A stretch of 64,000 nucleotides of DNA from Escherichia phage vB_EcoM_JNE01, in the sequence record OR670491; one strand, written 5' to 3'. The first letter of the stretch is position 1. The number at the start of each line of letters is the position of its first letter. Shown here one piece after another: positions 7,493-33,267 of this stretch. The notes under the pieces were generated by a model. It had not been told where the DNA came from, did no database searches, and saw only the letters and a list, made by a program, of their open reading frames with translations. The position numbers and the translations under genes were made by a program.

Positions 7493-7921
7493 ATGAATAT
7501 CGAACAAGTAATCCGCTCTAACGCTTTCTTCTCTGCTGAATCTGGTCGTGTTATCGAAGATATCAAAATCGAAGAACTGATGATCAACGTTAAGTACAAA
7601 GAACAGAACGAAGAAATGTCCAGCAGCATCTGTGCTCTACGTGCTCCATTCCGTAGTGAAAAAGCTAAGAAGCCAGCATATGTTCTAGCGATTGCTCTTG
7701 GTTGTGTAGTGAAGAAAGCAATTGACTCCAACCAACTAAATATCAAAGTTGCTCCAATGAACGATGAAGAGAACATCAACCTGGACTTCGACGGTCAACT
7801 GTCTGAAGAAGAATTCTTCCAGCTTTCTCTGATTCATGACTTCCGTAGCATCAACTTTGACCACATTCACTTCATCGACGAAATGGTTGAATTGGTTTCT
7901 CAGTACGAAGCTGAACTGTAA
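7493..7921 (+). CDS. EE-x-FFQxS-motif family protein
   Basis: 142 aa; motif SEEEFFQLSLIHDF about 35 aa from C-terminus; E. coli-optimal codon usage; followed by strong terminator. Confidence 0.65.
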   Translation: MNIEQVIRSNAFFSAESGRVIEDIKIEELMINVKYKEQNEEMSSSICALRAPFRSEKAKKPAYVLAIALGCVVKKAIDSNQLNIKVAPMNDEENINLDFDGQLSEEEFFQLSLIHDFRSINFDHIHFIDEMVELVSQYEAEL

Positions 7922-7935
7922 TAAGTAATAAAACA

Positions 7936-7959
7936 AGCCTCCTTGAAAGGGGGCTTTTG
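7936..7959 (+). terminator. rho-independent terminator
   Basis: Hairpin AGCCTCC-TTGAAA-GGGGGCT followed by TTTT. Confidence 0.6.
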
Positions 7960-7975
7960 TCATAAGGATATGTAA

Positions 7976-8533
7976 ATGAAGTTAATAGAACAAATTCAAA
8001 CCCTATCAAATCAGATTGCAGAGTTCTTGTCTGATAAAGAAGGATTTAAAGTAGAAATCACACACCACGGTGTAGGTATTGTTGTAACTTATCCAAGTGG
8101 TGATACAATGGATTATGATGTGTATGAGCTATTGCTATACACCCTAGCAGTGCGTAAGCTCGGTAGTGATATCGAACTTAAAATCAACAAAGATGAAAAT
8201 GGTAATGAAGTTTTTGCAGTAAACACTGATGCTAAACTTGACATTCCTGCTGGATTCACTAAAATCAATGAATCATTTATTGGTTTTAAACATGATTCTA
8301 TTCAGAGTGTTTTTATTGGTCGTCAAATTGCAAACACCCAATTCCCATACACTGTTATGACATTGTATAAAAACGGCAACTGGATGCGTCAGGATTTGGT
8401 AATGGCTGAAGTACTGTATGCACTAACCCATGACCTAAGCCTTGAACTCGTTGATAGTGCATTCTGCTTTAAACGTATTCGCAAACTATCTGCTGACATT
8501 CAAGCGGAACTAAAAGAACTAAATGATAAATAA
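7976..8533 (+). CDS. hypothetical protein
   Basis: 185-aa ORF between two terminators. Confidence 0.55.
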   Translation: MKLIEQIQTLSNQIAEFLSDKEGFKVEITHHGVGIVVTYPSGDTMDYDVYELLLYTLAVRKLGSDIELKINKDENGNEVFAVNTDAKLDIPAGFTKINESFIGFKHDSIQSVFIGRQIANTQFPYTVMTLYKNGNWMRQDLVMAEVLYALTHDLSLELVDSAFCFKRIRKLSADIQAELKELNDK

Positions 8534-8650
8534 ATGTACCAGAAATGGTTAACATAATCATGTTACTTTCCTCCCTTATACAATAATGATTTGTTATTCC
8601 ACATTTTATTTTTTCATTTCTCTTTTTTCGTACAAATTCTTTTTCGTACT

Positions 8651-8672
8651 GCCCCTACTTAGGGGCATTTTT
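8651..8672 (+). terminator. rho-independent terminator
   Basis: Hairpin GCCCCTACTTAGGGGC followed by a T-run. Confidence 0.6.
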
Positions 8673-8690
8673 ATTGCCTAAAATAAAGTT

Positions 8691-8718
8691 TTGACATTTG
8701 GTGATTAGGTGATATAAT
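8691..8718 (+). promoter_or_regulatory. sigma70-type promoter
   Basis: TTGACA (8691-8696), 16-nt spacer, TATAAT (8713-8718). Confidence 0.55.
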
Positions 8719-8745
8719 ATTCATATACATCTTAGAGGATACATT

Positions 8746-9174
8746 ATGATTTTCGATTTGCATTCATTTTTTAATAAATTCAACGAAGCTGATATCCCTA
8801 CGTGGGACGTAAAAATCAATCACACTAATAAATCATTGTGGCTACATAAAGGTAATGAATCGATCCAGATGATGATTAATGATGATTATGATATCACCCG
8901 CTTCTACCACATGGAAGAAAACAAAACCTTCGTTAAGGTTGCTTTCGACATATCTGATGATAATCTGTTCATCAACGTTCTGTCAGCCGGTTCTCATGTC
9001 CTGGTTGATGCTAAAATCAAAGAGATTAGTACTATCAAAAGTGAGGAAGGATTGTTTCAACGATCTGTTATTGAAGACCTGTACAATGTAGAATACTCTG
9101 ATATTGTGAAGCTGAAGGCAATCGTGGATAGTCTTAAAGCAAAAGCAAAAGAACTCATCAAAGAGGTATACTAA
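8746..9174 (+). CDS. EE-x-FFQxS-motif family protein
   Basis: 142 aa; motif SEEGLFQRSVIEDL. Confidence 0.6.
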   Translation: MIFDLHSFFNKFNEADIPTWDVKINHTNKSLWLHKGNESIQMMINDDYDITRFYHMEENKTFVKVAFDISDDNLFINVLSAGSHVLVDAKIKEISTIKSEEGLFQRSVIEDLYNVEYSDIVKLKAIVDSLKAKAKELIKEVY

Positions 9175-9641
9175 TGAAAAGCATTCTCCAAAACTGGAAT
9201 CCAGACACAATTAGTACTGAAACTAAATCGTCTTTTGCGTTCTCTATTATTAACATTGACGTTATAGATTATCTATCTATTGATTCGATGGACGCAAAGG
9301 AATGCACACATCGTGTGTGGTATGATTATGACCAAGGCGTAGAACTGACACTTACGTATAACACAGAAGATTTGGTTCAAAGTGAACAATACAGTGTGTG
9401 CCTTGATGGTACTATTGGTATTCGAAAGCATTACTTGAATGATGATGGGAAAGTTATTTCCGAAACAATCAATATCACAGATCATGGTTTTAATGAAGAA
9501 TCTTTCTTCATGGAAAGTACTATGCAGAATTTTGGCACAATGACTTTTGAAGATTATGTACATCTTAAAATTCTATATCGCAAAGTACTGGAAGTTGTTG
9601 CCGAACTGGAAAAGGTGAACAAACATGATCAACATTCATAA
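9174..9641 (+). CDS. EE-x-FFQxS-motif family protein (variant FFMES)
   Basis: 155 aa; motif NEESFFMESTMQNF; start overlaps previous stop. Confidence 0.6.
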   Translation: MKSILQNWNPDTISTETKSSFAFSIINIDVIDYLSIDSMDAKECTHRVWYDYDQGVELTLTYNTEDLVQSEQYSVCLDGTIGIRKHYLNDDGKVISETINITDHGFNEESFFMESTMQNFGTMTFEDYVHLKILYRKVLEVVAELEKVNKHDQHS

Positions 9642-10002
9642 AGAATTGGCATTATTAAAAAAAGATTTCGATGAAAATACATTAACACTATCATTAAATG
9701 CTGGTGTAATTAAAGTTGGTGTTTCCACGTCATACCTTGTTTACCGTAAGAACAGTAAAGAGGTCTTATATCATAATGAATCTGGTATAATTTGGGTGTA
9801 TGATATGGAAAAGAATGTCATCAATTACGTTACTGATTTTTATGCACATAAAACAGTTAATTTTGATGTTACTGAAGAGGAACTATTCCAACAATCTCTG
9901 ATAGAAGCTGATGTATTAATGCCAGAGGAAATTAAAATAATCACAGATGCGGTGCAGTATGTATTTGATAGTGTTCAAGAACATGAAGGTACTGAAGGAT
10001 AG
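9625..10002 (+). CDS. EE-x-FFQxS-motif family protein
   Basis: 125 aa; motif TEEELFQQSLIEAD. Confidence 0.6.
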   Translation: MINIHKELALLKKDFDENTLTLSLNAGVIKVGVSTSYLVYRKNSKEVLYHNESGIIWVYDMEKNVINYVTDFYAHKTVNFDVTEEELFQQSLIEADVLMPEEIKIITDAVQYVFDSVQEHEGTEG

Positions 10003-10005
10003 TCC

Positions 10006-10461
10006 ATGAATAAATTACAGGTTTTTGAATATCTAACACGTACATCAATGATGGATTTACCAGAAGTAACATGTAAGAACCCAAAAGAATTAATACGAAT
10101 CTATCATATTGTTGAGGATTTACAATACAGAATCAATACTGAATATGATTATGTTACTGTGTCTGTACAAAACTTAAACTGGAGTGGTTCAGCAGCGGAA
10201 ATGTTCAACATTTCATACGATACAGCTAATGATTGTTTAAGGGTATTCATTCGAGAAAGTTCTTATTCCCATATGGATTTTACTGAAGTTCGTGAGGTTA
10301 GTAATTGCCTAACGGAAGAAGGGTTTTTCCAAGAATCATTGGTACAGAATTTAGTGTTCACTCAAGATGAATTAAAATCTGTTATTGATATTTTGGAGTA
10401 TATACAGCTAAAAGCCAGAGCGAAATACAAAATAACAGAACAGATTCCGCGAGGTATATAA
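10006..10461 (+). CDS. EE-x-FFQxS-motif family protein
   Basis: 151 aa; motif TEEGFFQESLVQNL. Confidence 0.6.
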   Translation: MNKLQVFEYLTRTSMMDLPEVTCKNPKELIRIYHIVEDLQYRINTEYDYVTVSVQNLNWSGSAAEMFNISYDTANDCLRVFIRESSYSHMDFTEVREVSNCLTEEGFFQESLVQNLVFTQDELKSVIDILEYIQLKARAKYKITEQIPRGI

Positions 10462-10908: not shown

Positions 10909-10917
10909 GGTATAAAA

Positions 10918-11178
10918 ATGACTAAAGTAGTTCGCAAACGCCACATGATGAACATGGATGAATTCCGTACTTTTGACAAATATCGTACAATGTTCCGTAT
11001 GCTGTCTAAGGGCCACCCTATTGTTATTGTAACTGAAAGTTACATGTCACCAGAGATGATGTTTGGAAACTATGAAAAGGTCTTTATGCTTTATGTGAAG
11101 CGTGAACTTCTAACTATTAAAACATTAGCAGAAGCCACTGATGAAGATATGGATGGTGATAATACATTCACCATGTGA
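10918..11178 (+). CDS. hypothetical protein
   Basis: 86-aa ORF. Confidence 0.5.
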   Translation: MTKVVRKRHMMNMDEFRTFDKYRTMFRMLSKGHPIVIVTESYMSPEMMFGNYEKVFMLYVKRELLTIKTLAEATDEDMDGDNTFTM

Positions 11179-11513: not shown

Positions 11514-11565
11514 ATACTGTGCTATAATGAATTTATAGTACAACAATATAAAAAAAGGATTTTAT

Positions 11566-13455
11566 ATGAAACCAATCAGAGTACTGTCACTTTTTAATGG
11601 AATGAGTGTGGGATACATGGCACTTCAAGATGCTGGTATCCCAGTTGAAACGTATTACTCTTCCGAAATTGATAAGTATGCTATTGCTGAATCCCAAGAG
11701 AATTTCCCTGATATTATCCAACTAGGTGACGTTACCAAGTGGAAGGATTGGGATATTGAATGGGATAAGATTGACCTCCTTATGGGAGGGTTCCCGTGTT
11801 TCCCTGAAGGAACAATGATAATGACCGACAAAGGTCACAAAGATATTAAAGACATTCAAATTGGTGACATGGTACTAACTCATACTGGTCAATATCATCC
11901 AGTATTGAGTACAGGTGTTAAAAAAGCCCCTACGCGTATTATTTCAGGGCAAGGACATTTACCTATTGAATGTACTGATAATCACCCATTTTATTCTAGA
12001 AAAATGTCGTCTAGCTGGAATAACAGCATTAGACAATATGAACGTTCCTTCACTGAACCTGAGTGGATTGAGGCACACGAATTAACATCTGAACATTTTC
12101 TTTGTAATGTTAAATCAATTGAATCAGGTAAATCAACAAAAGATGAAAAATTCTGGTATTTTATGGGCCGCTTTATGGGTGATGGATGGACTTATAAAGT
12201 AAAGCGAAATAATAGAAAGAATAGTTACCAGTATAGAGTTTTCATCTGTTGTGCACATGATGAATTTGATGAATTGATTTCATGTTTTGAAGGTATGAAC
12301 ATGAAATATAATTATGTCAAAGAAAGAACATCATATAAATTTTATATATGTTCAAAAGAACTAGTTGAATTCTGTGAACAGATGGGTAAAGGTGCATCTA
12401 ATAAGAAAGTTCATCCTAATTTATTCAATGAATGTGTACAGAACCAGAAAGCATTCATTGATGGATATTTTGACGCAGATGGTCATGTTGATAGTAATTG
12501 TTATAAATTCACAACAACATCAATAGACTGCGTATTAGGTGTCCAACAATTAATAATGAATGTTTACGGAAGACATTCCAACATAAGCCTTACAGAACCA
12601 GAAAAAACTAAAGTTATTGAAGGACGAATTGTAAACCAAAAACCGTATTATGTTTTATCATATAAAAAAGACCAACCTAAAAAAGAGGAAGCTTTTTATG
12701 AAGAAAATTATTCATGGGTTAAAGGTGTAAAAACGAGTATTTCTACTGGTGAATGGAAAACTGTATATAATTTTGAAGTTGCCGTTGACAATACTTATAC
12801 CGCAAATAACATAGTTGTTCACAATTGTCAAGCCTGGTCGGTTGCAGGTAAACAGGGTGGAATAAATGATCCAAGAGGAATGTTGTTCCATACAATGGTT
12901 GATATTTACGAGCACATCAAAAGTCTCAATCCAGACTTGAAAGTACTGTTCGAGAATGTTAAAATGAAAGACGATTTCAAGCAATACATCAACAGTATTC
13001 TTGATATGACACCAGTACTGATAAATTCCCATAATTACACGCCTCACTTCAGACAACGTTATTATTGGTACAGTTCTGATAAATTACTAACTCCACCTGC
13101 ATTAATGAATGCACCTGTGCTTCAGGACATTCTGGATGATGGTTGGTATACTGACCGTACCGCTTCGTACTGTATAGATGCCAACTACTTTAAGGGTGGT
13201 GATTGTAATCAATACTTCAATAAGTCCAGGCGACAATTGGTGTTCAAGAACCCTGATATCAATCGTCAGTACTTACTTGAGAATGGTAAAAGAAACATTG
13301 ACTACCGTCACTTAAGTGTAGTAGAATGTTGTAAATTGCAAGGTGTACCAACTGATTATTTCAAGTTATCTAGTAATACACAGGCATATAAAATGCTAGG
13401 GAACGGTTGGACAATGCCAGTCATTTCACATTTGCTTAAAGAGATATTCTTTTAA
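11566..13455 (+). CDS. DNA (cytosine-5)-methyltransferase (Dcm-like) interrupted by an in-frame intein
   Basis: Motif I LFNGMSVGY; motif IV GGFP|CQAWSVAG split by a 343-aa insertion; motif VI ENVK; motif X MLGNGWTMPV. Confidence 0.85.
   Translation: MKPIRVLSLFNGMSVGYMALQDAGIPVETYYSSEIDKYAIAESQENFPDIIQLGDVTKWKDWDIEWDKIDLLMGGFPCFPEGTMIMTDKGHKDIKDIQIGDMVLTHTGQYHPVLSTGVKKAPTRIISGQGHLPIECTDNHPFYSRKMSSSWNNSIRQYERSFTEPEWIEAHELTSEHFLCNVKSIESGKSTKDEKFWYFMGRFMGDGWTYKVKRNNRKNSYQYRVFICCAHDEFDELISCFEGMNMKYNYVKERTSYKFYICSKELVEFCEQMGKGASNKKVHPNLFNECVQNQKAFIDGYFDADGHVDSNCYKFTTTSIDCVLGVQQLIMNVYGRHSNISLTEPEKTKVIEGRIVNQKPYYVLSYKKDQPKKEEAFYEENYSWVKGVKTSISTGEWKTVYNFEVAVDNTYTANNIVVHNCQAWSVAGKQGGINDPRGMLFHTMVDIYEHIKSLNPDLKVLFENVKMKDDFKQYINSILDMTPVLINSHNYTPHFRQRYYWYSSDKLLTPPALMNAPVLQDILDDGWYTDRTASYCIDANYFKGGDCNQYFNKSRRQLVFKNPDINRQYLLENGKRNIDYRHLSVVECCKLQGVPTDYFKLSSNTQAYKMLGNGWTMPVISHLLKEIFF
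11797..12825 (+). mobile_element. intein with LAGLIDADG homing-endonuclease domain, inserted at the MTase catalytic PCQ motif
   Basis: Begins C-F-P-E-G-T-M-I-M-T-D-K-G (Hint block A); ends NIVVHN followed by +1 Cys; two LAGLIDADG-like motifs (YFMGRFMGDG, FIDGYFDADG). Confidence 0.8.
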
Positions 13456-14452: not shown

Positions 14453-14854
14453 ATGAGTAAGTATACAATAAAAGTAATCTATGAGACTGGTGATACCAGC
14501 AGTAGTAGCATTATCGAAGAAAACATTGACTTACAATGGGAAACCATTGAAGGTGCACGTAATGCATTGCAGGTTCTTAAAGAACACTGGGAATACACTA
14601 TTAGACGAGATAAGTGCCGTACTCGTGATGAAGTCACTGGCCTTGATAGTGAGATGCATACCAAGACTTGGTACTCACCAAGTGGAGGTGAATATCTTTT
14701 TCGAGTGGATGTGGATGGTACAATGTGTTCATGTCATGCACCCTGGGTTGGGTACTTTGAAGTATTGAATAGTGCTGAAGTGGTTCCGGTCGTTGAAGAA
14801 GTAGAGAATCCTGATAAGATCAATTTTGATGCTCTGCGTTGGAATATAAAATGA
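14453..14854 (+). CDS. hypothetical protein
   Basis: 133-aa ORF. Confidence 0.5.
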   Translation: MSKYTIKVIYETGDTSSSSIIEENIDLQWETIEGARNALQVLKEHWEYTIRRDKCRTRDEVTGLDSEMHTKTWYSPSGGEYLFRVDVDGTMCSCHAPWVGYFEVLNSAEVVPVVEEVENPDKINFDALRWNIK

Positions 14855-15279
14855 CAGTACTGAAAAATCTTGCTAAGATAAAGCACCCTGTTGTCTATGG
14901 ATTGTGGAAAAAAGTAGCAACTGATGTTCCAGACAAAACTTGGCGTGGATTAAGTCGTGTTTTAAGTAATGTTAATGACATGACATATTCAACAAAAGAT
15001 GAACTAGTCATTGACATGCGTTTCCACCCAAAACCCAAACTGAGAATCAAGTACATAATCAAGATTCGTGCAACTTCGTTTGACATTAGTATTGAAAAGT
15101 ATTATGATGGCAATTGGTGGGATGACCCAGTTACAGTAATGTCTATGCTTGAAATGAAGTATGAAAATTTCGAAGAAATGATATTTCAGCACTTGACAAC
15201 GCAACAATATATGGGTATGATAGGTACTCAAGAGTTAGAGATGATTAACGAAATTCGTGACATTTACTTCAAGGAGTAA
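14839..15279 (+). CDS. hypothetical protein, EE-x-FFQxS-like motif
   Basis: 146 aa; motif FEEMIFQHLTTQQY. Confidence 0.5.
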   Translation: MEYKMTVLKNLAKIKHPVVYGLWKKVATDVPDKTWRGLSRVLSNVNDMTYSTKDELVIDMRFHPKPKLRIKYIIKIRATSFDISIEKYYDGNWWDDPVTVMSMLEMKYENFEEMIFQHLTTQQYMGMIGTQELEMINEIRDIYFKE

Positions 15280-19583: not shown

Positions 19584-19970
19584 ATGAACAAAGAAGAGAT
19601 CACGAACCTTATTAAATCAATATATGAAGAGGTCCAGGACGCAAAGAATATTTGTCAACACAGAACAGGTTACTCAACCGTAGGTGAAGTAGAAACTTTG
19701 AAGCTTGCGTTATGGACACCTGACCATCTTAACTACGTGGATTGTATAATCCATCGACAAGACACAGGTGGTTATTACTTTATATCCAATTATAACGCAG
19801 ACAAACAATCTCATTTTTATGTGGAGTTTTATCCACATGCGTTTCATCTAGTACAATCCGAAGAGGATGAATTTCAAAAACTCACCACTATAGGAACTGA
19901 TGAGAAATGCATTCCCTTTGAACTCTATGAAAAGATGCAGTACATTACTAGTGTTATGATGGCATATTGA
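19584..19970 (+). CDS. hypothetical protein (weak EE-x-FQ motif)
   Basis: 128 aa; SEEDEFQKLTTIG. Confidence 0.5.
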   Translation: MNKEEITNLIKSIYEEVQDAKNICQHRTGYSTVGEVETLKLALWTPDHLNYVDCIIHRQDTGGYYFISNYNADKQSHFYVEFYPHAFHLVQSEEDEFQKLTTIGTDEKCIPFELYEKMQYITSVMMAY

Positions 19971-20020: not shown

Positions 20021-20524
20021 ATGCTCATTACACATGTACCTGAAAGCATTACTGAAATTCTAAACAAAGTTAATGTTAATGAATTTGAACGAACTGTAAG
20101 AAAACATGATACTTACCACTATAAGCACAAAGATGGCGAACACCAAATAAACATAGATCTTAGTTATCAAACACTAACAATTAAAATGGTAACACGTTGG
20201 AACTTTGTTCGCAAAGACAGTATTATGCTTAATTTGGATAAAGGTATTATTAGAAAATTCTTCTCTGAATCAAATGGTATCTATCCAAACAATAATAGAA
20301 TTTTAACATATCAGTACTTAACTGATGAAGCTGTACATTTCCAGGAGAGCTTAATTTGTGATAACAAGTACTTTCCTAGTATGTCTGATGTTTTGAAATT
20401 AAAAGAACTATATGACTATTACTATAATGATACTAACCTTTGGGATGAAGAAATGGAAAAACGTCAAAGGGAACGTAACAAAAATAAAGTCTGGACTGGT
20501 TCACATTGGATGACACGAAAATGA
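20021..20524 (+). CDS. EE-x-FFQxS-motif family protein (divergent)
   Basis: 167 aa; DEAVHFQESLICDN. Confidence 0.5.
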   Translation: MLITHVPESITEILNKVNVNEFERTVRKHDTYHYKHKDGEHQINIDLSYQTLTIKMVTRWNFVRKDSIMLNLDKGIIRKFFSESNGIYPNNNRILTYQYLTDEAVHFQESLICDNKYFPSMSDVLKLKELYDYYYNDTNLWDEEMEKRQRERNKNKVWTGSHWMTRK

Positions 20525-20934
20525 ATCAATGCTACGAAATTAATGTAACAAAACCTGAAACAAGCACTTTGGAAGCGTTGGAAGACACATTAACAGTACT
20601 ACAATCTCCTGACAAAGAAACATCATTAGTAACCATTGAATACAAGGATTGTACGGTTGATGCTGGGAAACATCCAGAGTGGAAAGCACACCAATATTAC
20701 TCAATATACATTCGCTATGAAAATTTCATAACTGATATGGCCTACGCAGAGGACTATCTGTTACTGGAGAATCATTTTGTATTCAAACAAAAAGAATACA
20801 TGTATTGTACTCCTGAATATCTCGAAGAAGAAGAATTTCAGTATTCTTTGGTGCAGGATGAAGTTGAGTACAACAAAGTATTAGTACTGTCAAAAATACA
20901 TAAAATACTAAAGGATAAATATGTCACACAGTGA
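20506..20934 (+). CDS. EE-x-FFQxS-motif family protein
   Basis: 142 aa; EEEEFQYSLVQDE. Confidence 0.55.
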   Translation: MDDTKMNQCYEINVTKPETSTLEALEDTLTVLQSPDKETSLVTIEYKDCTVDAGKHPEWKAHQYYSIYIRYENFITDMAYAEDYLLLENHFVFKQKEYMYCTPEYLEEEEFQYSLVQDEVEYNKVLVLSKIHKILKDKYVTQ

Positions 20935-21091
20935 ATGGATGTACTTTATGAAACAAAAATATGCACCGCCTTTAAACGAAAGTATTAGCTACATTCACTG
21001 GAATGTAATCAAAAACCCTTCGTTATATAAACGATATTTCGTAGAACCAAATACTGGTTGGTTTTTAATGGAACTTATTTTTAGGGATTAA
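20921..21091 (+). CDS. MTHEEW-family micro-protein (56 aa)
   Basis: MSHSEWMYF...; below track size cutoff. Confidence 0.4.
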   Translation: MSHSEWMYFMKQKYAPPLNESISYIHWNVIKNPSLYKRYFVEPNTGWFLMELIFRD

Positions 21092-21093
21092 TC

Positions 21094-21255
21094 ATGACAC
21101 ATGAAATTTGGTTAAACTTAATGGCACACGATTTAAAACGAAGTATTAAACACTGGGATCTATATCTGATGATGACTATCAATTCACCTGTGTACTATAA
21201 ATCTGTACTAGATGCTTCGGCCCTTACTTTCATTGCAATTTCTATGAGTAGATAA
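21094..21255 (+). CDS. MTHEEW-family micro-protein (53 aa)
   Basis: MTHEIWLNL... Confidence 0.4.
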   Translation: MTHEIWLNLMAHDLKRSIKHWDLYLMMTINSPVYYKSVLDASALTFIAISMSR

Positions 21256-21429: not shown

Positions 21430-21615
21430 ATGACATATCAAGACTGGATTGAACGAATGGACAGAATCTTTGCCAATGACGTTTTTTATTTCAGAACAGG
21501 GGGTCTGGATAAAAGCATCAAAGACGATACTCTGTTTACCAGATGTATCATTGACTATCTGGATTGTTATGGTACAATGTATGGTATTGCCCGTACTACG
21601 GATAAAGATGAATGA
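21430..21615 (+). CDS. MTHEEW-family micro-protein (61 aa)
   Basis: MTYQDWIERM...; in ORF track. Confidence 0.45.
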   Translation: MTYQDWIERMDRIFANDVFYFRTGGLDKSIKDDTLFTRCIIDYLDCYGTMYGIARTTDKDE

Positions 21616-21785
21616 CACATAAAGAATGGTTGGTACAAACTAAACACTCGGTTATACCAGGTATGAAATTTTGGAATGAACAGTTGATGCACTTCGTAAG
21701 TAATAAAGTGTATTACGATGCATTCTTTGGAAAACATGCTACAATTGAGGTTCATGTGTATTATGCTATTGCATTTAGTGATTAA
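21612..21785 (+). CDS. MTHEEW-family micro-protein (57 aa)
   Basis: MTHKEWLVQ...; ATGA overlap with previous. Confidence 0.4.
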   Translation: MTHKEWLVQTKHSVIPGMKFWNEQLMHFVSNKVYYDAFFGKHATIEVHVYYAIAFSD

Positions 21786-22281: not shown

Positions 22282-22849
<568 letters not shown>

Positions 22850-22881
22850 TACTGATAAATATTAATGAAAGGTATAGAGAA

Positions 22882-23079
22882 ATGACTAAATCCGAACTTC
22901 TGGCTTTATTAGAAAATTATCCAGATGATGCATGTATTGAAGTAGTTCACACTGCACAACATTTTGACATTGAAGATGTTGTACGATACAATGACAAAGG
23001 TGTGATGATTATGGAACTATGTATCGGTGCTTTGAAAACTGTGCCAGAATCAACTAAACGAAAATCCCAAAAGGAATAA
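22882..23079 (+). CDS. hypothetical protein
   Basis: 65-aa ORF. Confidence 0.45.
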   Translation: MTKSELLALLENYPDDACIEVVHTAQHFDIEDVVRYNDKGVMIMELCIGALKTVPESTKRKSQKE

Positions 23080-23085
23080 AATATT

Positions 23086-23319
23086 ATGGAAACTAATACA
23101 ATTTTAGATGTAGTAAACAGTGTTAATACTGGTGACTTTGTTCACATTCTTTTATCCAACATCCGCGTTAAGGGTATTGTTGAAAGTGTTGATTCTGAAG
23201 TTCTAACTATTGTTGAAGTTGATCCATACGACAATAATAAATCAGTTCGTCTGTGCATTGATGTTTCCAAAATTGTAGCACTCGGTACAGAAATTATTAC
23301 TGAAGAAACTAATCTATAA
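23086..23319 (+). CDS. hypothetical protein
   Basis: 77-aa ORF. Confidence 0.45.
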   Translation: METNTILDVVNSVNTGDFVHILLSNIRVKGIVESVDSEVLTIVEVDPYDNNKSVRLCIDVSKIVALGTEIITEETNL

Positions 23320-23330
23320 AACGACAATAA

Positions 23331-23407
<77 letters not shown>

Positions 23408-23460
23408 CTTAAGAGGATTTAATATGTTTAAAGATGAACGTCCAGATTTGTAAATAATCA

Positions 23461-23489
23461 TTGACTAAATAATCCAGTACTGATAAAAT
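23461..23489 (+). promoter_or_regulatory. promoter with CAGTACTG spacer motif, upstream of tRNA-Ser
   Basis: TTGACT, 17-nt spacer containing CAGTACTG, TAAAAT. Confidence 0.5.
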
Positions 23490-23495
23490 AAATTT

Positions 23496-23582
<87 letters not shown>

Positions 23583-23589
23583 TCAATAT

Positions 23590-23671
<82 letters not shown>

Positions 23672-23692
23672 ATTTTAATTTAAGGTGTATCC

Positions 23693-23857
23693 ATGACGCA
23701 TGAAGAATGGATGAATGATATTAATTTTAGATATTCGGGTATCGGTAGTTGGCGAAAATATCATTGGGAAATTATATCAGACCCAGCAGAATACGATAAA
23801 CTTATAAACCATGAAGTATATCCGTGGTTCTTTATTGAAATAATGGTACGAATATGA
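23693..23857 (+). CDS. MTHEEW-family micro-protein (54 aa)
   Basis: MTHEEWMNDINFRYSG...; first of three tandem copies. Confidence 0.45.
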   Translation: MTHEEWMNDINFRYSGIGSWRKYHWEIISDPAEYDKLINHEVYPWFFIEIMVRI

Positions 23858-24018
23858 CGCATGAAGAATGGATGAATGACATTAATTTTAGATATTCGGG
23901 TTTCGGTAAATGGCTAAAGTATCATTGGGAATTTATTACTGATCCTCAAATGTACGATAAACTTATAAATGATCAAGCATATGAAATTTACTTATTTGAA
24001 ATACTGGTCAGAACATGA
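23854..24018 (+). CDS. MTHEEW-family micro-protein (54 aa)
   Basis: Near-identical N-terminus to previous; ATGA overlap. Confidence 0.45.
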   Translation: MTHEEWMNDINFRYSGFGKWLKYHWEFITDPQMYDKLINDQAYEIYLFEILVRT

Positions 24019-24179
24019 CGCATGAAGAATGGATGAGAAAACAAAAGCTAACATGGAATCCTTATTGTTACCAGTTAGACCCAAGAATGTGGGATGTGAT
24101 ACGTATTAAATGTATGTACAAATCATTTCTTGGTGATATAATGGATGTTGAAGTACTGATGAATTTAGTACATCGATAA
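24015..24179 (+). CDS. MTHEEW-family micro-protein (54 aa)
   Basis: MTHEEWMRKQKL...; ATGA overlap. Confidence 0.45.
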   Translation: MTHEEWMRKQKLTWNPYCYQLDPRMWDVIRIKCMYKSFLGDIMDVEVLMNLVHR

Positions 24180-24209
24180 TAAAAATCTTATTTAAATGGG
24201 ATTGATATC

Positions 24210-24571
<362 letters not shown>

Positions 24572-24575
<4 letters not shown>

Positions 24576-24600
24576 CTAAATAGTTCAGTACTGATAAAAT
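24572..24600 (+). promoter_or_regulatory. promoter with CAGTACTG spacer motif
   Basis: TTGACT-AAATAGTTCAGTACTGA-TAAAAT. Confidence 0.5.
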
Positions 24601-24757
24601 GGTAAGGCGTGGAAATATGTTTACAGTAGTTACATAGTAGCCTGTACGCCCCACGTCAAGGTAGCCGAAAGGCAAGTTAAAAAGGGTGGTTATAAAGCTG
24701 AATTAACAGCGGCGTTTAAAAGCGTCACCATCCATTTTTTTAATTAAAGTTGGTGAT

Positions 24758-25259
<502 letters not shown>

Positions 25260-25264
25260 AAATC

Positions 25265-25354
25265 GGTCCCGTTGCCTAGCGTCCGAAGGCAGCCGACTCA
25301 TAATCGGTCACAGTTAATGACACGCCACTGGTTAGAATCCAGTCGGGACCACCA
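25265..25354 (+). tRNA. type II (long variable arm) tRNA with CAT anticodon; identity unclear
   Basis: Acceptor GGTCCCG/CGGGACC; anticodon arm GCCGA-CTCATAA-TCGGT; 18-nt variable region; atypical T-loop TTAGAAT; CCA encoded. Confidence 0.55.
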
Positions 25355-25358
25355 ATTA

Positions 25359-25431
25359 GACTCTGTAGTTCAGTTGGTAGAACGCTTCACTCATAATGAA
25401 GAAGTCGCTGGTTCAATCCCAGTACTGACCA
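25359..25431 (+). tRNA. tRNA-Met(CAT)-like; 3' acceptor strand not complementary (possible pseudogene)
   Basis: Canonical D-arm and anticodon arm CTTCA-CTCATAA-TGAAG, T-loop TTCAATC, but 5' GACTCTG does not pair with 3' ACTGACC; 3' end abuts the low-GC minus-strand gene. Confidence 0.45.
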
Positions 25432-25439
25432 CAAAAAAA

Positions 25440-27137
<1,698 letters not shown>

Positions 27138-27207
27138 AATATTCTCCTGAATTTTCTAAAAGTTATAATAATATTTAGTTACAATATTTATGATATAGAT
27201 TAAAAAG

Positions 27208-27236
27208 TTGAAATGTGTTCAAAAATGTGGTATAAT
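27208..27236 (+). promoter_or_regulatory. sigma70-type promoter
   Basis: TTGAAA, 17-nt spacer, TATAAT with upstream TG. Confidence 0.45.
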
Positions 27237-27242
27237 ACCTCT

Positions 27243-27486
<244 letters not shown>

Positions 27487-27514
27487 CTTTTTAATTTAAA
27501 AGTACTTTACTGTA

Positions 27515-28084
27515 GTGTTTAGTATCGTATATTGTAATCAAAAGGATATAATAAAACTCATGGAGAGAGTTGAAGAATGGCGTGATGTTGTTGGTTATGA
27601 AGACCATTTCCAAGTTAGTAACAAAGGTAGAATTTACAGCAAAAGAACAAATAAAATTTTAGTTCAAGGTACTAATAAAAAAGGTTATAAAGTATTAAGT
27701 ACTAGAATTGGTGGAAGAACTGGAGTATGTAAGTGTTTTAGGGTTCATATTTTAGTGGCTCAAGCATTTATATCAAATCCACATAATAAGCCCATTGTAA
27801 ACCATAAAGATGGCAATAAACAAAACAACGAAGACTGGAATTTAGAATGGTCTACATATAGTGAGAATACTAATCATGCTTATAAAAATGGTTTAACAAT
27901 ACCATTAAAAGGAACTGAACAAGTTCAATCCAAATTAACCGAAGATGATGTTAGATACATACGTTCAGTGTATAAACCATATGATAAAACATATGGTGCA
28001 TCTATGTTAGCAAAACAATTTGGTGTACATCATAGTTTAATATCGGATATAGCATCACATAAATCATGGAAGCATGTTAAGTAA
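27515..28084 (+). CDS. HNH homing endonuclease
   Basis: N-terminal motif EEWRDVVGYEDHFQVSNKGRIYS; HNH motif HILVAQAF...NHKDGNKQNN; low GC. Confidence 0.8.
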   Translation: MFSIVYCNQKDIIKLMERVEEWRDVVGYEDHFQVSNKGRIYSKRTNKILVQGTNKKGYKVLSTRIGGRTGVCKCFRVHILVAQAFISNPHNKPIVNHKDGNKQNNEDWNLEWSTYSENTNHAYKNGLTIPLKGTEQVQSKLTEDDVRYIRSVYKPYDKTYGASMLAKQFGVHHSLISDIASHKSWKHVK

Positions 28085-28103
28085 TAAAAAAACAGTACTG
28101 AAC

Positions 28104-28135
<32 letters not shown>

Positions 28136-28146
28136 CAAACATATTC

Positions 28147-28222
28147 GGCCCTGTATACAATCCAGGAATGTACTCTGCTCATAACAGATGTAAGGTCGGG
28201 GCAGCACCGACCAGGGCCACCA
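28147..28222 (+). tRNA. tRNA-like gene with CAT anticodon and non-canonical T-loop
   Basis: Acceptor GGCCCTG/CAGGGCC + A + CCA; anticodon hairpin TCTG-CTCATAA-CAGA; T-arm GTCGG-GGCAGCA-CCGAC (not TTCRANY). Confidence 0.4.
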
Positions 28223-28382
28223 ATTTTGGACACATTAATCTTCGATGGTAATGCTGGTTAATATCTTACGGCTGTAAAATGCAATACATTACATATTGCT
28301 TCAGGTACAGAGATATAAAGATTAATTAATAAGGTATCCTTATTTTGTCCAATCCTTAATAACTAGAAATGGTGGGAAAGAA

Positions 28383-28829
28383 ATGAAAGGTGTTTCAATT
28401 TTTTACGATTACCATGAACAAGGTTTACCACATCAGATTGCTGGAATCTATTCTACGTCTGATAAAACCGAAGAAGAGATGCGTACTGAATTATTGTCGC
28501 TAATTGGTGAGAGAAGTTTCCATGAACGTGATCAACCAATTTTCATTAACCACACACATTTGTATGCAAAAAGTTTGCTAGGTGAAGAACTTGATAAAAA
28601 GGTGGAATACACTTTGAAACAGTTCTTCCCAATCGCACTTGATGTAGTTGGTTTCAAATCATCGGATTTCAAGTTCATGTACTATGATGTTGAAGCATAT
28701 GAGTTCGCTTGGAACAATCGTTATCATAAACAATTACACCAATATCGTTTAGAACTTCAACATGAAGCGGCTGAAGCATATAAAGCAAAACGAGCAGCAC
28801 AGAAGCTTGAAGGTAACGTACAGAAATGA
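28383..28829 (+). CDS. hypothetical protein
   Basis: 148-aa ORF. Confidence 0.5.
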   Translation: MKGVSIFYDYHEQGLPHQIAGIYSTSDKTEEEMRTELLSLIGERSFHERDQPIFINHTHLYAKSLLGEELDKKVEYTLKQFFPIALDVVGFKSSDFKFMYYDVEAYEFAWNNRYHKQLHQYRLELQHEAAEAYKAKRAAQKLEGNVQK

Positions 28830-29128
28830 TAGAATCTATCTTATGTGTACTGTTGCCAATTTTAGTAGTTGCTTTGATATGTCTTTATTATGGTTACAGT
28901 ACTGTAATTGATAAAAAGCAAGTTTACGTCATTACATTCAGTACTACACATATTGAGTTTGGTAATGTACATACCGGTATCACTTATATTGCATATCGTT
29001 GTAAGTACTTCCATAAGTTCAAATCTTATGATATGATCTATTACTGTGATGAATCCAACGTGAACCGTTATATTGACATAAACGATGAATCAAAAAAATC
29101 GTTTTACAGTTTTAAAGAATTAAAATAA
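28826..29128 (+). CDS. hypothetical membrane protein
   Basis: 100 aa; hydrophobic N-terminus. Confidence 0.5.
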   Translation: MIESILCVLLPILVVALICLYYGYSTVIDKKQVYVITFSTTHIEFGNVHTGITYIAYRCKYFHKFKSYDMIYYCDESNVNRYIDINDESKKSFYSFKELK

Positions 29129-29208
29129 ATGTAGACGGATGTATTCAGTACTGAATCACCAGGGGAGGTTGTAATTCCCGATTCAGTAGCTTTTTAAGCG
29201 GTTTCGTG

Positions 29209-29255
<47 letters not shown>

Positions 29256-29256
29256 G

Positions 29257-29309
<53 letters not shown>

Positions 29310-29327
29310 CGAGGTACTCCGGTATGC

Positions 29328-29360
<33 letters not shown>

Positions 29361-29468
29361 AATATTGTTGCAACAGTATTCAGTACTACTTTTTAATTGA
29401 CACAACTTTGAATGAGGTGTATTATGTTCCAAGAAGAAAACTGGGGTTTTTAACATAAAGGGGAATGT

Positions 29469-29576
29469 ATGAAAGTGAGTAAAGAAACGGCTAAACAGCT
29501 TGAAGAACTTTGTTCAGCACAACCTATGCCTACACTTGCTTTAATCAAGTTAATGCGTCGAAATAAGCAAAAATAA
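29469..29576 (+). CDS. small hypothetical protein (35 aa)
   Basis: ATG after AAAGGGGAA RBS; below track size cutoff. Confidence 0.25.
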   Translation: MKVSKETAKQLEELCSAQPMPTLALIKLMRRNKQK

Positions 29577-29659
29577 AAATGATAAATAATACAGTAAGAT
29601 GACCTCCCCTCAATACGAAAGAGTATGGAGACTTGTTGGTTATCTTACTTCTTAAATTA

Positions 29660-29732
29660 GCCTTCTTAACTCAGTTGGTAGAGTAATCGCCTTGTAAGCG
29701 ATAAGTCATCCGTTCAAGTCGGATAGAGGGCA
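29660..29732 (+). tRNA. tRNA-Thr (anticodon TGT)
   Basis: Acceptor GCCTTCT/AGAGGGC; D-arm ACTC-AGTTGGTAG-AGT; anticodon arm ATCGC-CTTGTAA-GCGAT; T-arm ATCCG-TTCAAGT-CGGAT. Confidence 0.8.
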
Positions 29733-29734
29733 CA

Positions 29735-29816
<82 letters not shown>

Positions 29817-29828
29817 TAAAGGTGAACA

Positions 29829-30260
29829 ATGAAAATGAACATTGTAAAATTTGTTGATTATGTATTACAAAACGAAACATGGTCACTACACGATGTACAA
29901 GTAGAAGACGTTGGTGAAGTGCGTGTTTTTTGCTATGATCCAGAATTGAATGAAATCACTGATTTGAGTAAATGTTTTAATATTTTTATGGCTTATGAAC
30001 TCAATAAGAAGTTTTATTCAATTGATATGTATTTGAACACTGTTACATTTAGAATTTCTGAATATGATAATTTTAATGAAGATTATTATATTGATGAAAG
30101 CATTGAATTTAATGTAGATGATATAGACACTGAAGAAAAATTCTTTCAGTACTCTCTTGTTAATGACACATTGGGCTTGACATTTGATGACGTTAAAGCT
30201 ATACTTAAAGTTCAGAAATTGATTCCTGAAGATGTCCAAAATCCCTTACGTGAAGAATAA
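29829..30260 (+). CDS. EE-x-FFQxS-motif family protein
   Basis: 143 aa; TEEKFFQYSLVNDT. Confidence 0.6.
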   Translation: MKMNIVKFVDYVLQNETWSLHDVQVEDVGEVRVFCYDPELNEITDLSKCFNIFMAYELNKKFYSIDMYLNTVTFRISEYDNFNEDYYIDESIEFNVDDIDTEEKFFQYSLVNDTLGLTFDDVKAILKVQKLIPEDVQNPLREE

Positions 30261-30273
30261 TCTGGAGATATAA

Positions 30274-30468
30274 ATGTTTTTGAATTTACTAACTGTGTTT
30301 GGACGTACCTTACTATTAGCAGTAATTCATACACCTGGTATCACGAAGTTAGTTTCTTATAAGTTCAAAGAAGATTTACATAATGGTACTGAAAAGTATC
30401 TTCGTAAATTGAATAAAGATTTAGGTGTTAAAGAAACAACACCATTCAAGAAGTATAGTGACGATTAA
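30274..30468 (+). CDS. hypothetical protein
   Basis: 64-aa ORF. Confidence 0.4.
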   Translation: MFLNLLTVFGRTLLLAVIHTPGITKLVSYKFKEDLHNGTEKYLRKLNKDLGVKETTPFKKYSDD

Positions 30469-30675
30469 AATATATTACCGAATAATTCAGTACTGGATAT
30501 GCTGTACTGATAGCTTCTAGCCAGTACTGGATTCCTCCTTTTTCACTAGAAGCTGTCACTTATTCATACGTTTGTTACCCTCATAGCACTCGTTGTTTCA
30601 AAAGGTATCTTATTACCCCCCTCTCGTAAGATACTTGAATTTAGTAGTTGACTTTTCAACTTCTTATATGTTATA

Positions 30676-30712
30676 CTTAGGCTGAATCAAATGATTCGGC
30701 CTTTTTCTTTTT
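30676..30712 (+). terminator. rho-independent terminator
   Basis: Hairpin GGCTGAATC-AAA-TGATTCGGCC followed by TTTTTCTTTTTT; lies just upstream of the RBS for the next gene. Confidence 0.5.
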
Positions 30713-30726
30713 TAGGAGTGCTTTTA

Positions 30727-31149
30727 ATGAATTTCAGTACTACAAAAGAAGCGATAGCACATGCAACAGTTTCTATGTGTAAAGCCATTGCAGATGGAAA
30801 TTTTAACAAGGATATATACTACCAATTAAACGAACAACAAGTTGATATTAATTGTTATAATGAAAACGGTATGTGTACTTCATACGATAAAGCCAGTAAT
30901 ATCTTCTTTATGATCCGAGAGTTACCAAATGAACAATTATGTAAGTTCTATGCTGAAATTGATATGTATAAGAACTATATTAATTTCCAATTCTTGGATA
31001 TAGATCTATTTCGATTGGATATCACTTCTGATATGTTAAACCTAACAGAAGAAATGTTTTTCCAAATGAGCTTAGTTTACGATTTTAAGTACTTCGAATA
31101 TGAAACATTACGTAAGATATTTCAAGTAGCGGGGACTCTACATGAATAA
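30727..31149 (+). CDS. EE-x-FFQxS-motif family protein
   Basis: Track ORF trimmed to the ATG after a TAGGAG RBS; motif TEEMFFQMSLVYDF. Confidence 0.55.
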   Translation: MNFSTTKEAIAHATVSMCKAIADGNFNKDIYYQLNEQQVDINCYNENGMCTSYDKASNIFFMIRELPNEQLCKFYAEIDMYKNYINFQFLDIDLFRLDITSDMLNLTEEMFFQMSLVYDFKYFEYETLRKIFQVAGTLHE

Positions 31150-31561
31150 TAAGATTCTCAAGAAAATTTTAGATAGGACTGATATCTTCATTAAAGGTAG
31201 TGATGAAAATTACAACGTTCTGCATGATGGTGATATCGATACGCACATCTCATCTTATCTAAACAACTACCGTTGTAGTGTAAGTTATTGTAATAATATA
31301 GTTTTCGTAACAACATCTGAAACATTAGGATCGATTGGTTGGATTGACATTTTGGAGGATGGATTCACTTATGAAAATGAAGTCCTGGATTATACACTTG
31401 AATTCTACGACATTCAGGACTATAATTTAACAGAAGATGTGTACTTCCAGTTGAGTACTATCTATGATTTTGATATCATCGAATTTGAAGATTTGAAGAG
31501 AATCTTTAAGATTTGTGATTTTTTAAAAGGGAACCGAAATGAATCGACAATCGTTGCCTAA
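31142..31561 (+). CDS. EE-x-FFQxS-motif family protein
   Basis: 139 aa; TEDVYFQLSTIYDF. Confidence 0.6.
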   Translation: MNNKILKKILDRTDIFIKGSDENYNVLHDGDIDTHISSYLNNYRCSVSYCNNIVFVTTSETLGSIGWIDILEDGFTYENEVLDYTLEFYDIQDYNLTEDVYFQLSTIYDFDIIEFEDLKRIFKICDFLKGNRNESTIVA

Positions 31562-31982
31562 AGAGCATGAGGACAACATCCTAAAGCGTTTGGATGAGAT
31601 CACCAACACCCCATTAAGTGTTCTGGAAGCGAACTACGATGCCAAATTCAAGCAGTTCTTGTTCAACAATAGTGAATGGTGGTACAGTACTCCAGAATTG
31701 GTTTGTGCTGTTAATGTGGGCGTAGGTGAGTATGAGTATGCTATTCACTATAACCAGAAGAACATAAGCATCATTGTTGATGAAATTGCAGAGTCTGATA
31801 AATGGCGTGATGATAACAGTATCTTAAGTATGGCTTTGAATTACAAAAATGATTCTGAATACTTTCAAGATAGTACTATCAAAGAGATTGAAGTATCTTA
31901 TAATGTAATAGAAAAGATGCGTGAATTTTGTTTGTACATACTAAAAGTGACAGAGGATCTCCAATGCAAGCATCCGAGATGA
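31539..31982 (+). CDS. EE-x-FFQxS-motif family protein (divergent)
   Basis: 147 aa; DSEYFQDSTIKEI. Confidence 0.55.
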   Translation: MNRQSLPKEHEDNILKRLDEITNTPLSVLEANYDAKFKQFLFNNSEWWYSTPELVCAVNVGVGEYEYAIHYNQKNISIIVDEIAESDKWRDDNSILSMALNYKNDSEYFQDSTIKEIEVSYNVIEKMREFCLYILKVTEDLQCKHPR

Positions 31983-32398
31983 GAAAACTGATTGAGAAAG
32001 AACATGGTAGTGTTGAGAATTTGGCTACAAAGATCATTGAAAGCCTTAAATTTGATGAATACCATAAGAGACTTGCACACAATGTTATTGGTGTTTCAAA
32101 AAGAGCCACCATTCTATATTTTCCTCGTTTACAAGAATATAACTTAGAATCAAACACAGATGGAACATTCTTTCAGGTGTACCGAAAAGAAGGTGAAGAC
32201 CGTGTAAGAATGTCATTACAACTTCCCGCCTCTTACACATACAGAGTTAATGATATTGAAGAGTCATGCAAGACTGAAGAAGAATTCTTTCAGGTTAGTT
32301 TGTTTCATGACTTGATCTTTTCTTATGAGTTCTTTAAAGAAGTCGAGTACTTGTTTAACTTGGCTGCCGAAAAACTGAAAAAAGATATGGAAAATTGA
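31964..32398 (+). CDS. EE-x-FFQxS-motif family protein
   Basis: Track ORF trimmed to the ATG after a GAGGA RBS; TEEEFFQVSLFHDL. Confidence 0.55.
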   Translation: MQASEMRKLIEKEHGSVENLATKIIESLKFDEYHKRLAHNVIGVSKRATILYFPRLQEYNLESNTDGTFFQVYRKEGEDRVRMSLQLPASYTYRVNDIEESCKTEEEFFQVSLFHDLIFSYEFFKEVEYLFNLAAEKLKKDMEN

Positions 32399-32399
32399 G

Positions 32400-32807
32400 A
32401 TGTTTTGTCTAACTGATGATATAATTAAAGAAGTTGTAGATATACTGAATAACCCTGGTACATTCACTAAATCCACTGAGTTGATTACTGAATTTCGTGA
32501 TGGGTGCTCTTATTACACAAACAATAACAGTACATGCGTGAGTCTTAACCTATCGGATGGGACTGGGGCGTTAATGCACCGTTACAGTACTCCGTTAGAT
32601 GGTGTACAATTTTCTTTTTCATTGATTGATAAAGAGTACAGTCTATTCTGTGATGATTATGAGAGTCTCAATGACCTGTATCTTGATTCTAAAATGTACT
32701 TCTCCGAAGAAGAACACTTCATGGATAGTACAGTTGAAAATCTAACAATTCCTTACACTATTATGGAAGAATTCAATACATTTTGCAGGAACTACGCAAA
32801 TGCATGA
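32400..32807 (+). CDS. EE-x-FFQxS-motif family protein (variant HFMDS)
   Basis: 135 aa; SEEEHFMDSTVENL. Confidence 0.55.
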   Translation: MFCLTDDIIKEVVDILNNPGTFTKSTELITEFRDGCSYYTNNNSTCVSLNLSDGTGALMHRYSTPLDGVQFSFSLIDKEYSLFCDDYESLNDLYLDSKMYFSEEEHFMDSTVENLTIPYTIMEEFNTFCRNYANA

Positions 32808-33267
32808 CTTATATGAAGATATTAATGATGTTATTGATGTAGCATTATGGACTGTTTTCGAATACAGAACAGAAAACAAACACTGGTCTAATTGGTATAC
32901 TAATGATAACCAAAAACTACTGCTAGGTCATGGTAATACCGTTGAGTGTCTTGCATTCACTCGTCATGGGGCAAGTGATGATATAAGGGATTGTTTTAAT
33001 ATACAAATATCACTACTTGGACAAGGTGTGTTGTATAAGATTGATGTTTATCATGATCGTTTATTTGTAGTGTCTGGTAGTGCTACCCGCATTGTATTAG
33101 GTTATGACATGAACCCAAGTGAAGCGGATTTGTTTATTGGTGATTTCGATAAAGACATTGATTGTGCAAGATACTTTCAATTAAGTACTTTGTATAGTTT
33201 ATGTAATATTAGTCATCGTGGATTAAAGAAGTTACAAAGTATTGCACGAAATTTAAATTCTGAATAA
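32800..33267 (+). CDS. EE-x-FFQxS-motif family protein (divergent)
   Basis: 155 aa; CARYFQLSTLYSL. Confidence 0.55.
   Translation: MHDLYEDINDVIDVALWTVFEYRTENKHWSNWYTNDNQKLLLGHGNTVECLAFTRHGASDDIRDCFNIQISLLGQGVLYKIDVYHDRLFVVSGSATRIVLGYDMNPSEADLFIGDFDKDIDCARYFQLSTLYSLCNISHRGLKKLQSIARNLNSE

Follow-up and report, generated by a model that had tools for sequence, protein, structure and literature searches.

Why does a jumbo phage carry more than twenty short, highly diverged genes that have little in common beyond a single motif? The question is raised by a 64,000-nucleotide stretch of Escherichia phage vB_EcoM_JNE01 (sequence record OR670491; hereafter the window), in which a prediction made from the letters alone had pointed to at least 22 motif-bearing open reading frames (ORFs), to a large lineage-specific family and to a possible role in targeting host proteins. 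The family is real, large and undescribed, and it is confined to the Rak2-like jumbo phages, in which it recurs as tandem arrays (phages of Escherichia, Klebsiella, Cronobacter and Pectobacterium). Our tentative reading of its function, to which we assign a probability of about 0.4, is that of a Rak2-like-specific family of small (~14-22 kDa), mostly acidic, early, non-virion proteins acting as diversified binders of host proteins.

A motif-defined family in the window

The family comprises 22 genes on the + strand, encoding proteins of 121-190 amino acids (aa) with the motif [TS]-E-E-x-[FYL]-F-[QM]-x-S-[TL]-[IVL]-x-[DN]. In a scan of the window, the strict pattern [ST]EEx[FLYV]F[QM]xS[LTV] gave 10 matches in the + frames and none in the - frames, while the 140 + strand genes contain the core F[QM]xS[LTVI] 22 times, where residue shuffles give 1.1 +/- 1.0 (maximum 5). 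A profile hidden Markov model (HMM), the check proposed with the original prediction, recovered the members: a profile of 150 homologues matched 22 window ORFs at E<=1.1e-8, with a 23rd (19584-19970) borderline at E 0.007, and leave-one-out HMMs recovered 20 of the 23 candidates at E<=1.3e-3 among the 371 window ORFs. All 22 of the genes first proposed are present on the + strand and carry the motif. Membership was defined by a length of 120-190 aa, a [TSDN]-E-E-x-[FYL]-F-[QM]-x-S-[TL]-[IVL]-x-[DN] helix lying 28-60 aa from the C-terminus and a match to the profile, a definition that takes in 22 window ORFs (Table 1).

The motif had been placed 30-45 residues from the C-terminus and ahead of a helix. 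The helix is found C-terminal to the motif in both AlphaFold models described below; the distance is wider than supposed, as 28-60 residues (mostly 28-43) separate the invariant F from the C-terminus in the 22 members. Outside the motif the sequences are as diverged as was claimed, with a mean column identity of 15% in the family alignment. Pairwise BLASTP at 1e-4 connects just 5 of the 22 members, so the family has gone unnoticed until now and is visible through its motif or profile alone. All ORFs assigned to two tandem clusters and to scattered copies exist, but the clusters are not strictly contiguous, being interrupted by non-members at 7976-8533 and 30274-30468. The 22 genes represent ~4% of the ~550-580 genes of a ~350-kb phage and ~16% of the 140 genes in the 64-kb early region.

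Outside the window, a profile run exhaustively against 1.84 billion representative proteins matched 132 clusters (50% identity) at E<=1e-3, all of 85-217 aa, and the core motif was present in 136 of the 144 proteins made up of these clusters and earlier matches. Those whose source was traced come from metagenomic contigs. A structural search of BFVD gave significant matches solely to uncharacterised proteins of RaK2, GAP32, CBB and their relatives, and a degenerate DNA motif probe found only nine stretches in IMG/VR, six of them on five contigs of 345-366 kb, including RaK2, and the remaining three on shorter contigs of 30-137 kb. A tblastn search with a consensus peptide, a query too insensitive for mapping the distribution, returned just nine Klebsiella phage records. 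Member counts reach 19 in a segment of phage Turkey5, and tandem arrays recur, with 19 members in the syntenic G17 region, seven in a 13-kb RaK2 fragment and 11-12 in 10 kb of a metagenomic contig. The tandem array of eight members at 2177-8361 of IMG/VR contig 3300007747_000009 encodes proteins of ~180-215 aa, longer than the window members, which suggests a subfamily with an extension. A further possible member (E 4e-5) lies beyond the window at 44882-45556 of the Turkey5 segment.

No Pfam or NCBIfam model matches the family (for Pfam, in the 22 window members and the 150 homologues), save for a RecQ-1-like_HTH match in one metagenomic homologue of the 150 (E 3.7e-12), which was not among the 20 candidates rescanned and is a possible domain fusion in that single protein. 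PADLOC assigned the 22 members to no family. In PHROGs every window member falls in a group of unknown function, with cross-matches to other groups through the motif region; the 22 members are spread over 24 groups (phrog_17453, 24941, 24321, 21500, 23322 and 19 others), so that this library leaves the family divided and assigns a function to none of its parts. All named homologues are annotated as "hypothetical protein". Prior literature contains a generic remark that paralogues make up ~10% of RaK2 proteins, or 22 of the CBB ORFs, and no account of the family was found in curated libraries or in literature on Asteriusvirus, Rak2-like phages, paralogues, MAM33 with phage, or jumbo phage anti-defence. 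The claim of a large lineage-specific family outside described ones thus stands. A polyimmunity, SUKH-type or defence family, which tandem, diverged genes of ~150 aa bring to mind, was considered and rejected, as neither Pfam nor PADLOC gave a match and the models are not SUKH-like.

Table 1. Family members and associated features of the window. Profile E refers to the profile of 150 homologues. Probable starts are internal ATG codons, assigned from the Turkey5 annotation and homologue lengths.
Feature	Coordinates	Strand	Motif	Profile E	Remarks
Member, 142 aa	7493..7921	+	SEEEFFQLSLIHD	6.4e-18	Leave-one-out E 4e-7
Perfect sigma70 promoter; terminator	8691-8718; 8650-8667	+			Both just upstream of member 8746..9174; strand is that of the promoter
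Member, 142 aa	8746..9174	+	SEEGLFQRSVIED	2.5e-18	
Member, 155 aa	9174..9641	+	NEESFFMESTMQN	8.2e-16	
Member, 125 aa	9625..10002	+	TEEELFQQSLIEA	3.5e-16	
Member, 151 aa	10006..10461	+	TEEGFFQESLVQN	4.7e-19	AlphaFold model 1
Member, 148 aa	10462..10908	+	TEEALFQLSTIQD	9.5e-18	
Divergent member, 150 aa	14000..14452	+	DDDFVFQQSTLTP	9.2e-10	Leave-one-out weak, E 0.63
Divergent member	14839..15279	+	FEEMIFQHLTTQQ	5.7e-11	S replaced by L; leave-one-out E 1.2e-3; probable start 14851
Possible 23rd, very divergent, 128 aa	19584..19970	+	SEEDEFQKLTTIG	0.0068	Not counted; leave-one-out E 1.5
Member, 167 aa	20021..20524	+	DEAVHFQESLICD	4.2e-14	Basic C-terminal tail
Member	20506..20934	+	LEEEEFQYSLVQD	1.7e-12	Probable start 20521
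Member	22433..22849	+	TEEELFMKSTIQN	4.6e-18	Probable start 22460
Member, 121 aa	24210..24575	+	NEEAYFQMSTVQE	9.1e-11	
Member, 123 aa	24758..25129	+	DEEDEFQKSTVYE	6.8e-10	
Member, 143 aa	29829..30260	+	TEEKFFQYSLVND	6.4e-16	AlphaFold model 2
Member	30691..31149	+	TEEMFFQMSLVYD	3.3e-15	Probable start 30727
Member, 139 aa	31142..31561	+	TEDVYFQLSTIYD	9.6e-16	
Member, 147 aa	31539..31982	+	NDSEYFQDSTIKE	5.1e-14	
Member	31928..32398	+	TEEEFFQVSLFHD	9.8e-16	Probable start 31964
Member, 135 aa	32400..32807	+	SEEEHFMDSTVEN	2.5e-15	
Member, 155 aa	32800..33267	+	DCARYFQLSTLYS	7.7e-11	Acidic pair lost
Scattered member, 166 aa	46568..47068	+	TEEKVFQQSLVHN	3.8e-14	Turkey5 orthologue is two ORFs
Scattered member, 190 aa from 52053	52053..52625	+	NEEEYFQESIVTE	1.1e-8	Probable start 52053 (ORF opens 52014); basic N-terminal extension; phAPEC6 gp039c homologue

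Predicted fold and the motif helix

AlphaFold2 models were obtained for two members, the protein encoded at 10006-10461 (model 1; 28 sequences, predicted local distance difference test score (pLDDT) 74.7, predicted template modelling score (pTM) 0.67) and that encoded at 29829-30260 (model 2; 150 sequences, pLDDT 83.7, pTM 0.75). Both show one compact domain composed of helix A, a 6-7-strand antiparallel meander sheet, helix B and helix C. The motif forms helix B, residues 102-111 in model 2 (102-111 or 104-113 across models), with a pLDDT of 94-97 over the motif block, and is followed by the amphipathic helix C. The original prediction had envisaged a shared partner-binding module attached to variable effector domains. 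A conserved C-terminal module with a variable remainder is a fair description at the level of sequence; both models, however, give a single compact domain, so the variable N-terminal half is no effector domain of its own: in both it forms the sheet of the same domain, into which the motif helix is integrated.

Column statistics over 150 sequences (model 2 numbering) define the constraints on this helix. Position 101 is occupied by T (56%), S (20%), D (10%) or N (6%), the four canonical helix N-cap residues, and is followed by E102 (92%), E103 (84%), F/Y/L at 105, F at 106 in 100% of sequences, Q at 107 (84%, with M in 15%), S109 (96%), T (56%) or L (40%) at 110, I/V/L at 111, D/N at 113 (84%) and F/L at 114. 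The residue after the motif Q is variable (Q 22%, L 20%, E 16%). The free positions of helix B are just 104, 108 and 112, which fall on one helix face in a helical-wheel reading; since these three alone are free, ~240 degrees of the helix are constrained, a pattern that favours a packed or interface helix. Along the strands, conserved hydrophobic residues alternate (34, 36, 54, 56, 72, 74) with variable polar residues between them. From the models we infer that the B-C helical hairpin, clamped on one sheet face, would constitute the conserved core and possibly also an oligomer interface, while the opposite sheet face and the loops would present a variable polar surface.

The same statistics bear on an alternative to diversified host-protein binders, in which helices B and C would dock all paralogues on a single shared machine (a host protease, for instance, or RNA polymerase, or a phage factor), while the variable sheet would recruit different substrates in the manner of the F-box and SOCS-box families. 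Because the polar motif residues E102, E103, Q107, S109 and D/N113 are unusually invariant, such an arrangement retains some weight, and the variability of the remainder (15% column identity) and the size and predicted early expression of the family would also agree with it. Nevertheless, the motif helix lies within one compact domain at very high pLDDT, and with only three positions free to vary the greater part of its surface would be packed; neither a fusion nor a conserved co-occurring gene was seen. We regard docking on a common machine as possible, if unlikely.

The fold itself has a faint resemblance to a known one. A PDB sequence-profile search found no related solved structure, its lone weak match, 3ihk 'TEENYFQK', being a chance match to the motif. 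The nearest solved fold, weakly, is that of MAM33/p32/gC1qR (C1QBP; PF02330; 1p32, 3qv0, 3jv1, 1yqf, 7te3). p32 is a very acidic homotrimer built of helix A, a seven-strand sheet, helix B and helix C. Acidity is shared: the mean isoelectric point (pI) is 5.0, and 19 of the 23 candidates have a pI <5.2 and a net charge of -7 to -19. Foldseek gave no significant match for model 2, with Mam33, Trypanosoma brucei p22, a Leishmania homologue and p32 at ranks 2-7 (E 0.08-0.14; template modelling score 0.2-0.37), and these four proteins recur across two models and two programs. The recurrence, together with the acidity and a loose likeness in predicted topology, speaks for a true remote homology to MAM33/p32, in which case the members would form acidic, doughnut-shaped homotrimers that act as chaperones of basic proteins or sequester them. 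At the level of sequence, however, Pfam found no PF02330 match in the 22 window members or the 150 homologues, the PDB profile search was empty, hhalign against human p32 (an approximate query sequence) returned a probability of 0.07, and EExFFQxS[TL][IV] was not a MAM33 signature in the tests run. Furthermore, MAM33 is a eukaryotic mitochondrial family and not a phage one, and the trimeric doughnut is known for p32, whereas the family here was modelled as a monomer. The predicted topology is thus weakly MAM33/p32-like; because there is no sequence-level link the family is kept apart from MAM33, and true homology appears distinctly unlikely.

The proposed resemblance of the Q-x-S-L-[IVF] core to the beta-clamp (DnaN)-binding pentapeptide, which would make the members clamp hijackers, fared poorly. 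QLSLI (7493) and QVSLF (31928) are superficially similar to QL[SD]LF, but none of the 22 members matches that consensus, and in the 150 homologues position 2 of the pentapeptide is variable, position 4 is T or L, position 5 is I/V/L and never F, and M takes the place of the Q in 15%. Clamp-binding motifs act as flexible peptides, whereas the motif here is confidently predicted as a structured helix within a domain. Consensus mismatch and helical context together make this link very improbable. A likeness of E-x-x-[YF]-F-Q to the potyviral NIa/TEV protease site (E-x-x-Y-x-Q↓S) was likewise rejected, as the residue after Q is variable, the S falls at +2 and the motif is helical; no NIa/TEV-type protease is known in this setting.

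Early expression, divergence and proposed function

The window is 97.6% identical to phage Turkey5 (351 kb) and ~79% identical over part of its length to Asteriusvirus G17, phAPEC6 and 121Q-type phages; two of its family members match vB_EcoM_JNE01 proteins at 100% identity. It is a one-directional array of short genes in which sigma70 promoters with at least 11 of 12 consensus matches occur 42 times on the + strand (1.6 expected), 18 of them perfect 12/12 matches, and not at all on the - strand. This pattern marks the entire window as the predicted host-RNA-polymerase (sigma70-driven) early region of an Asteriusvirus jumbo coliphage, and an early, host-takeover region was inferred from the same architecture for phage CBB (PMC5259590). 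The window also encodes an HNH homing endonuclease, a phage sigma factor and an intein-containing C5-methyltransferase. The phAPEC6 virion proteome (Table 1 of that study, 62 proteins) does not list gp039c and gp054c, the two family homologues that were mapped. Next to them, the small virion protein gp037c was examined as a candidate member and rejected (profile E 0.45). We infer that the other phAPEC6 members are non-virion as well, the listed gp077 and gp078c, placed in the genome region of the family by gene order, being of the wrong size. Given the promoters and the virion proteomics, the members are most likely early, non-structural proteins, in agreement with the original suggestion.

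How the members evolve was assessed at two distances. Against Turkey5, the ratio of nonsynonymous to synonymous substitution rates (dN/dS) is 0.19 for 17 gap-free orthologue pairs and 0.15 for 97 neighbouring genes, a value that points to functional members under purifying selection. Against G17, syntenic slots show a median effective identity of 26% for members and 49% for neighbours of at least 80 aa (one-sided Mann-Whitney p 0.009), that is, members diverge about twice as fast; in the slots at 8746-10461, for example, the identity is 28-32% while flanking genes retain 66-94%. The Turkey5 orthologue of 46568-47068 consists of two overlapping ORFs (5957-6441 of the Turkey5 segment) and is probably frameshifted. 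The pattern is one of birth-and-death evolution with fast divergence on a conserved scaffold. An expansion of ORFans without function or in decay, or an artefact of annotation, might be suspected from the very high divergence and the split Turkey5 orthologue, but the dN/dS over 17 gene pairs excludes a non-functional expansion for practical purposes, and the retention of the motif across 132 sequence clusters, the syntenic G17 slots and the confidently predicted fold leave this explanation almost no room.

These data have led us to a model in which host sigma70 RNA polymerase would transcribe the members early in infection. In each protein the [T/S/D/N] residue would cap helix B, with E-E at its first turn, while the F, S, [T/L] and [I/V] residues, the following [D/N]-[F/L] and helix C would clamp the helical hairpin onto the sheet face, with a possible oligomer interface. 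Paralogues would have arisen by tandem duplication followed by quick divergence, and each would turn its variable acidic surface on a host protein of its own, binding and neutralising it. Plausible targets are defence proteins or basic proteins that bind nucleic acids, which would be engaged much as acidic MAM33/p32-type binders or phage decoys engage theirs, in the course of host takeover or anti-defence.

Several points weigh against this model. Its target-binding step is conjectural. The polar motif residues are kept more strictly than helix packing usually needs, and could instead belong to a site for a ligand or partner. Not all members are acidic, three being neutral or basic. Positive selection was not detected, the pooled dN/dS being no different from that of the neighbours at short range, and many non-family genes of the region are fast-diverging too.

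A more elaborate version, quite doubtful in our estimation, would combine scaffold and docking: the family would be the first MAM33/p32-like acidic scaffold in a bacterial virus, with an invariant EExFFQxS helical module that oligomerises or docks on one common host machine, while over 20 hypervariable sheet surfaces would each capture a different host defence or nucleoid protein. If true, it would represent a bacterial-virus counterpart of the poxvirus multigene host-range families.

Neighbouring genes and comparison with known systems

Eight tRNA genes lie among the family members at 22282-29813: Leu-TAA, Gly-TCC, Ser-TGA, Ser-ACT, two Met-CAT and two Thr-TGT. The Ser tRNA with anticodon ACT (wobble A) is unusual and carries the same annotation in G17. 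The C5 cytosine DNA methyltransferase gene (11566-13455, +) contains an intein (Hint_2 and a LAGLIDADG_3 homing endonuclease) past the catalytic-Cys region, and its Turkey5 and G17 homologues are intein-free at 861 nucleotides. The lone - strand ORF (25440-27137, 565 aa) occupies a 28% GC patch directly 3' of the tRNA cluster and is followed by an HNH/NUMOD4 homing endonuclease gene at 27515-28084; Pfam gave no match, and neither the Turkey5 annotation nor G17 has a counterpart at this place. The ORF has the look of a recent insertion and may encode a tail-spike or pectate-lyase-like protein. Smaller paralogous sets are also present: tandem triplets of 54-56 aa ORFs (20921-21091 and 23693-24179), a pair of 53-57 aa (21094-21255 and 21612-21785) and three ORFs of ~110 aa (56796-58178). 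Outside the window, 27836-43532 of the Turkey5 segment holds a - strand array of ~12 RCC1/HERC1-like beta-propeller paralogues, a second large paralogue family in the same genome; the corresponding phAPEC6 proteins are 'DNA condensation proteins' of the virion.

Genes that are early, encode acidic proteins, diverge fast and are duplicated in tandem typically mark an arsenal for anti-defence or host takeover, which makes the family a tractable candidate set for new phage counter-defence mechanisms. Rak2-like jumbo phages are, moreover, under development for therapy.

Ocr of T7 and Arn of T4 offer a functional analogy. Both neutralise host DNA-binding defence proteins. Like most members described here, these decoys or DNA mimics are small, strongly acidic, early phage proteins; they are, however, single genes and not a family of more than 20, and a relation in sequence or fold, or evidence of DNA mimicry, was not found here. 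Another parallel is provided by the early 'host-takeover' arrays of T4-like and Rak2-like phages, for example CBB_390-546 (PMC5259590), which are likewise dense, one-strand runs of short hypothetical ORFs with RpoD-type promoters and, as in the window, interspersed tRNAs and homing endonucleases. Such regions have been described as collections of unrelated ORFans, whereas 22 of the genes here belong to one family with a strict motif and a common predicted fold. Lineage-specific expansions of small early phage genes were already known; what is new is the family itself, its weakly p32-like predicted scaffold and its sharp motif. Its profile unifies ORFans that standard annotation has missed, and supplies a fold and a mutational handle in E102, F106, Q107 and S109.

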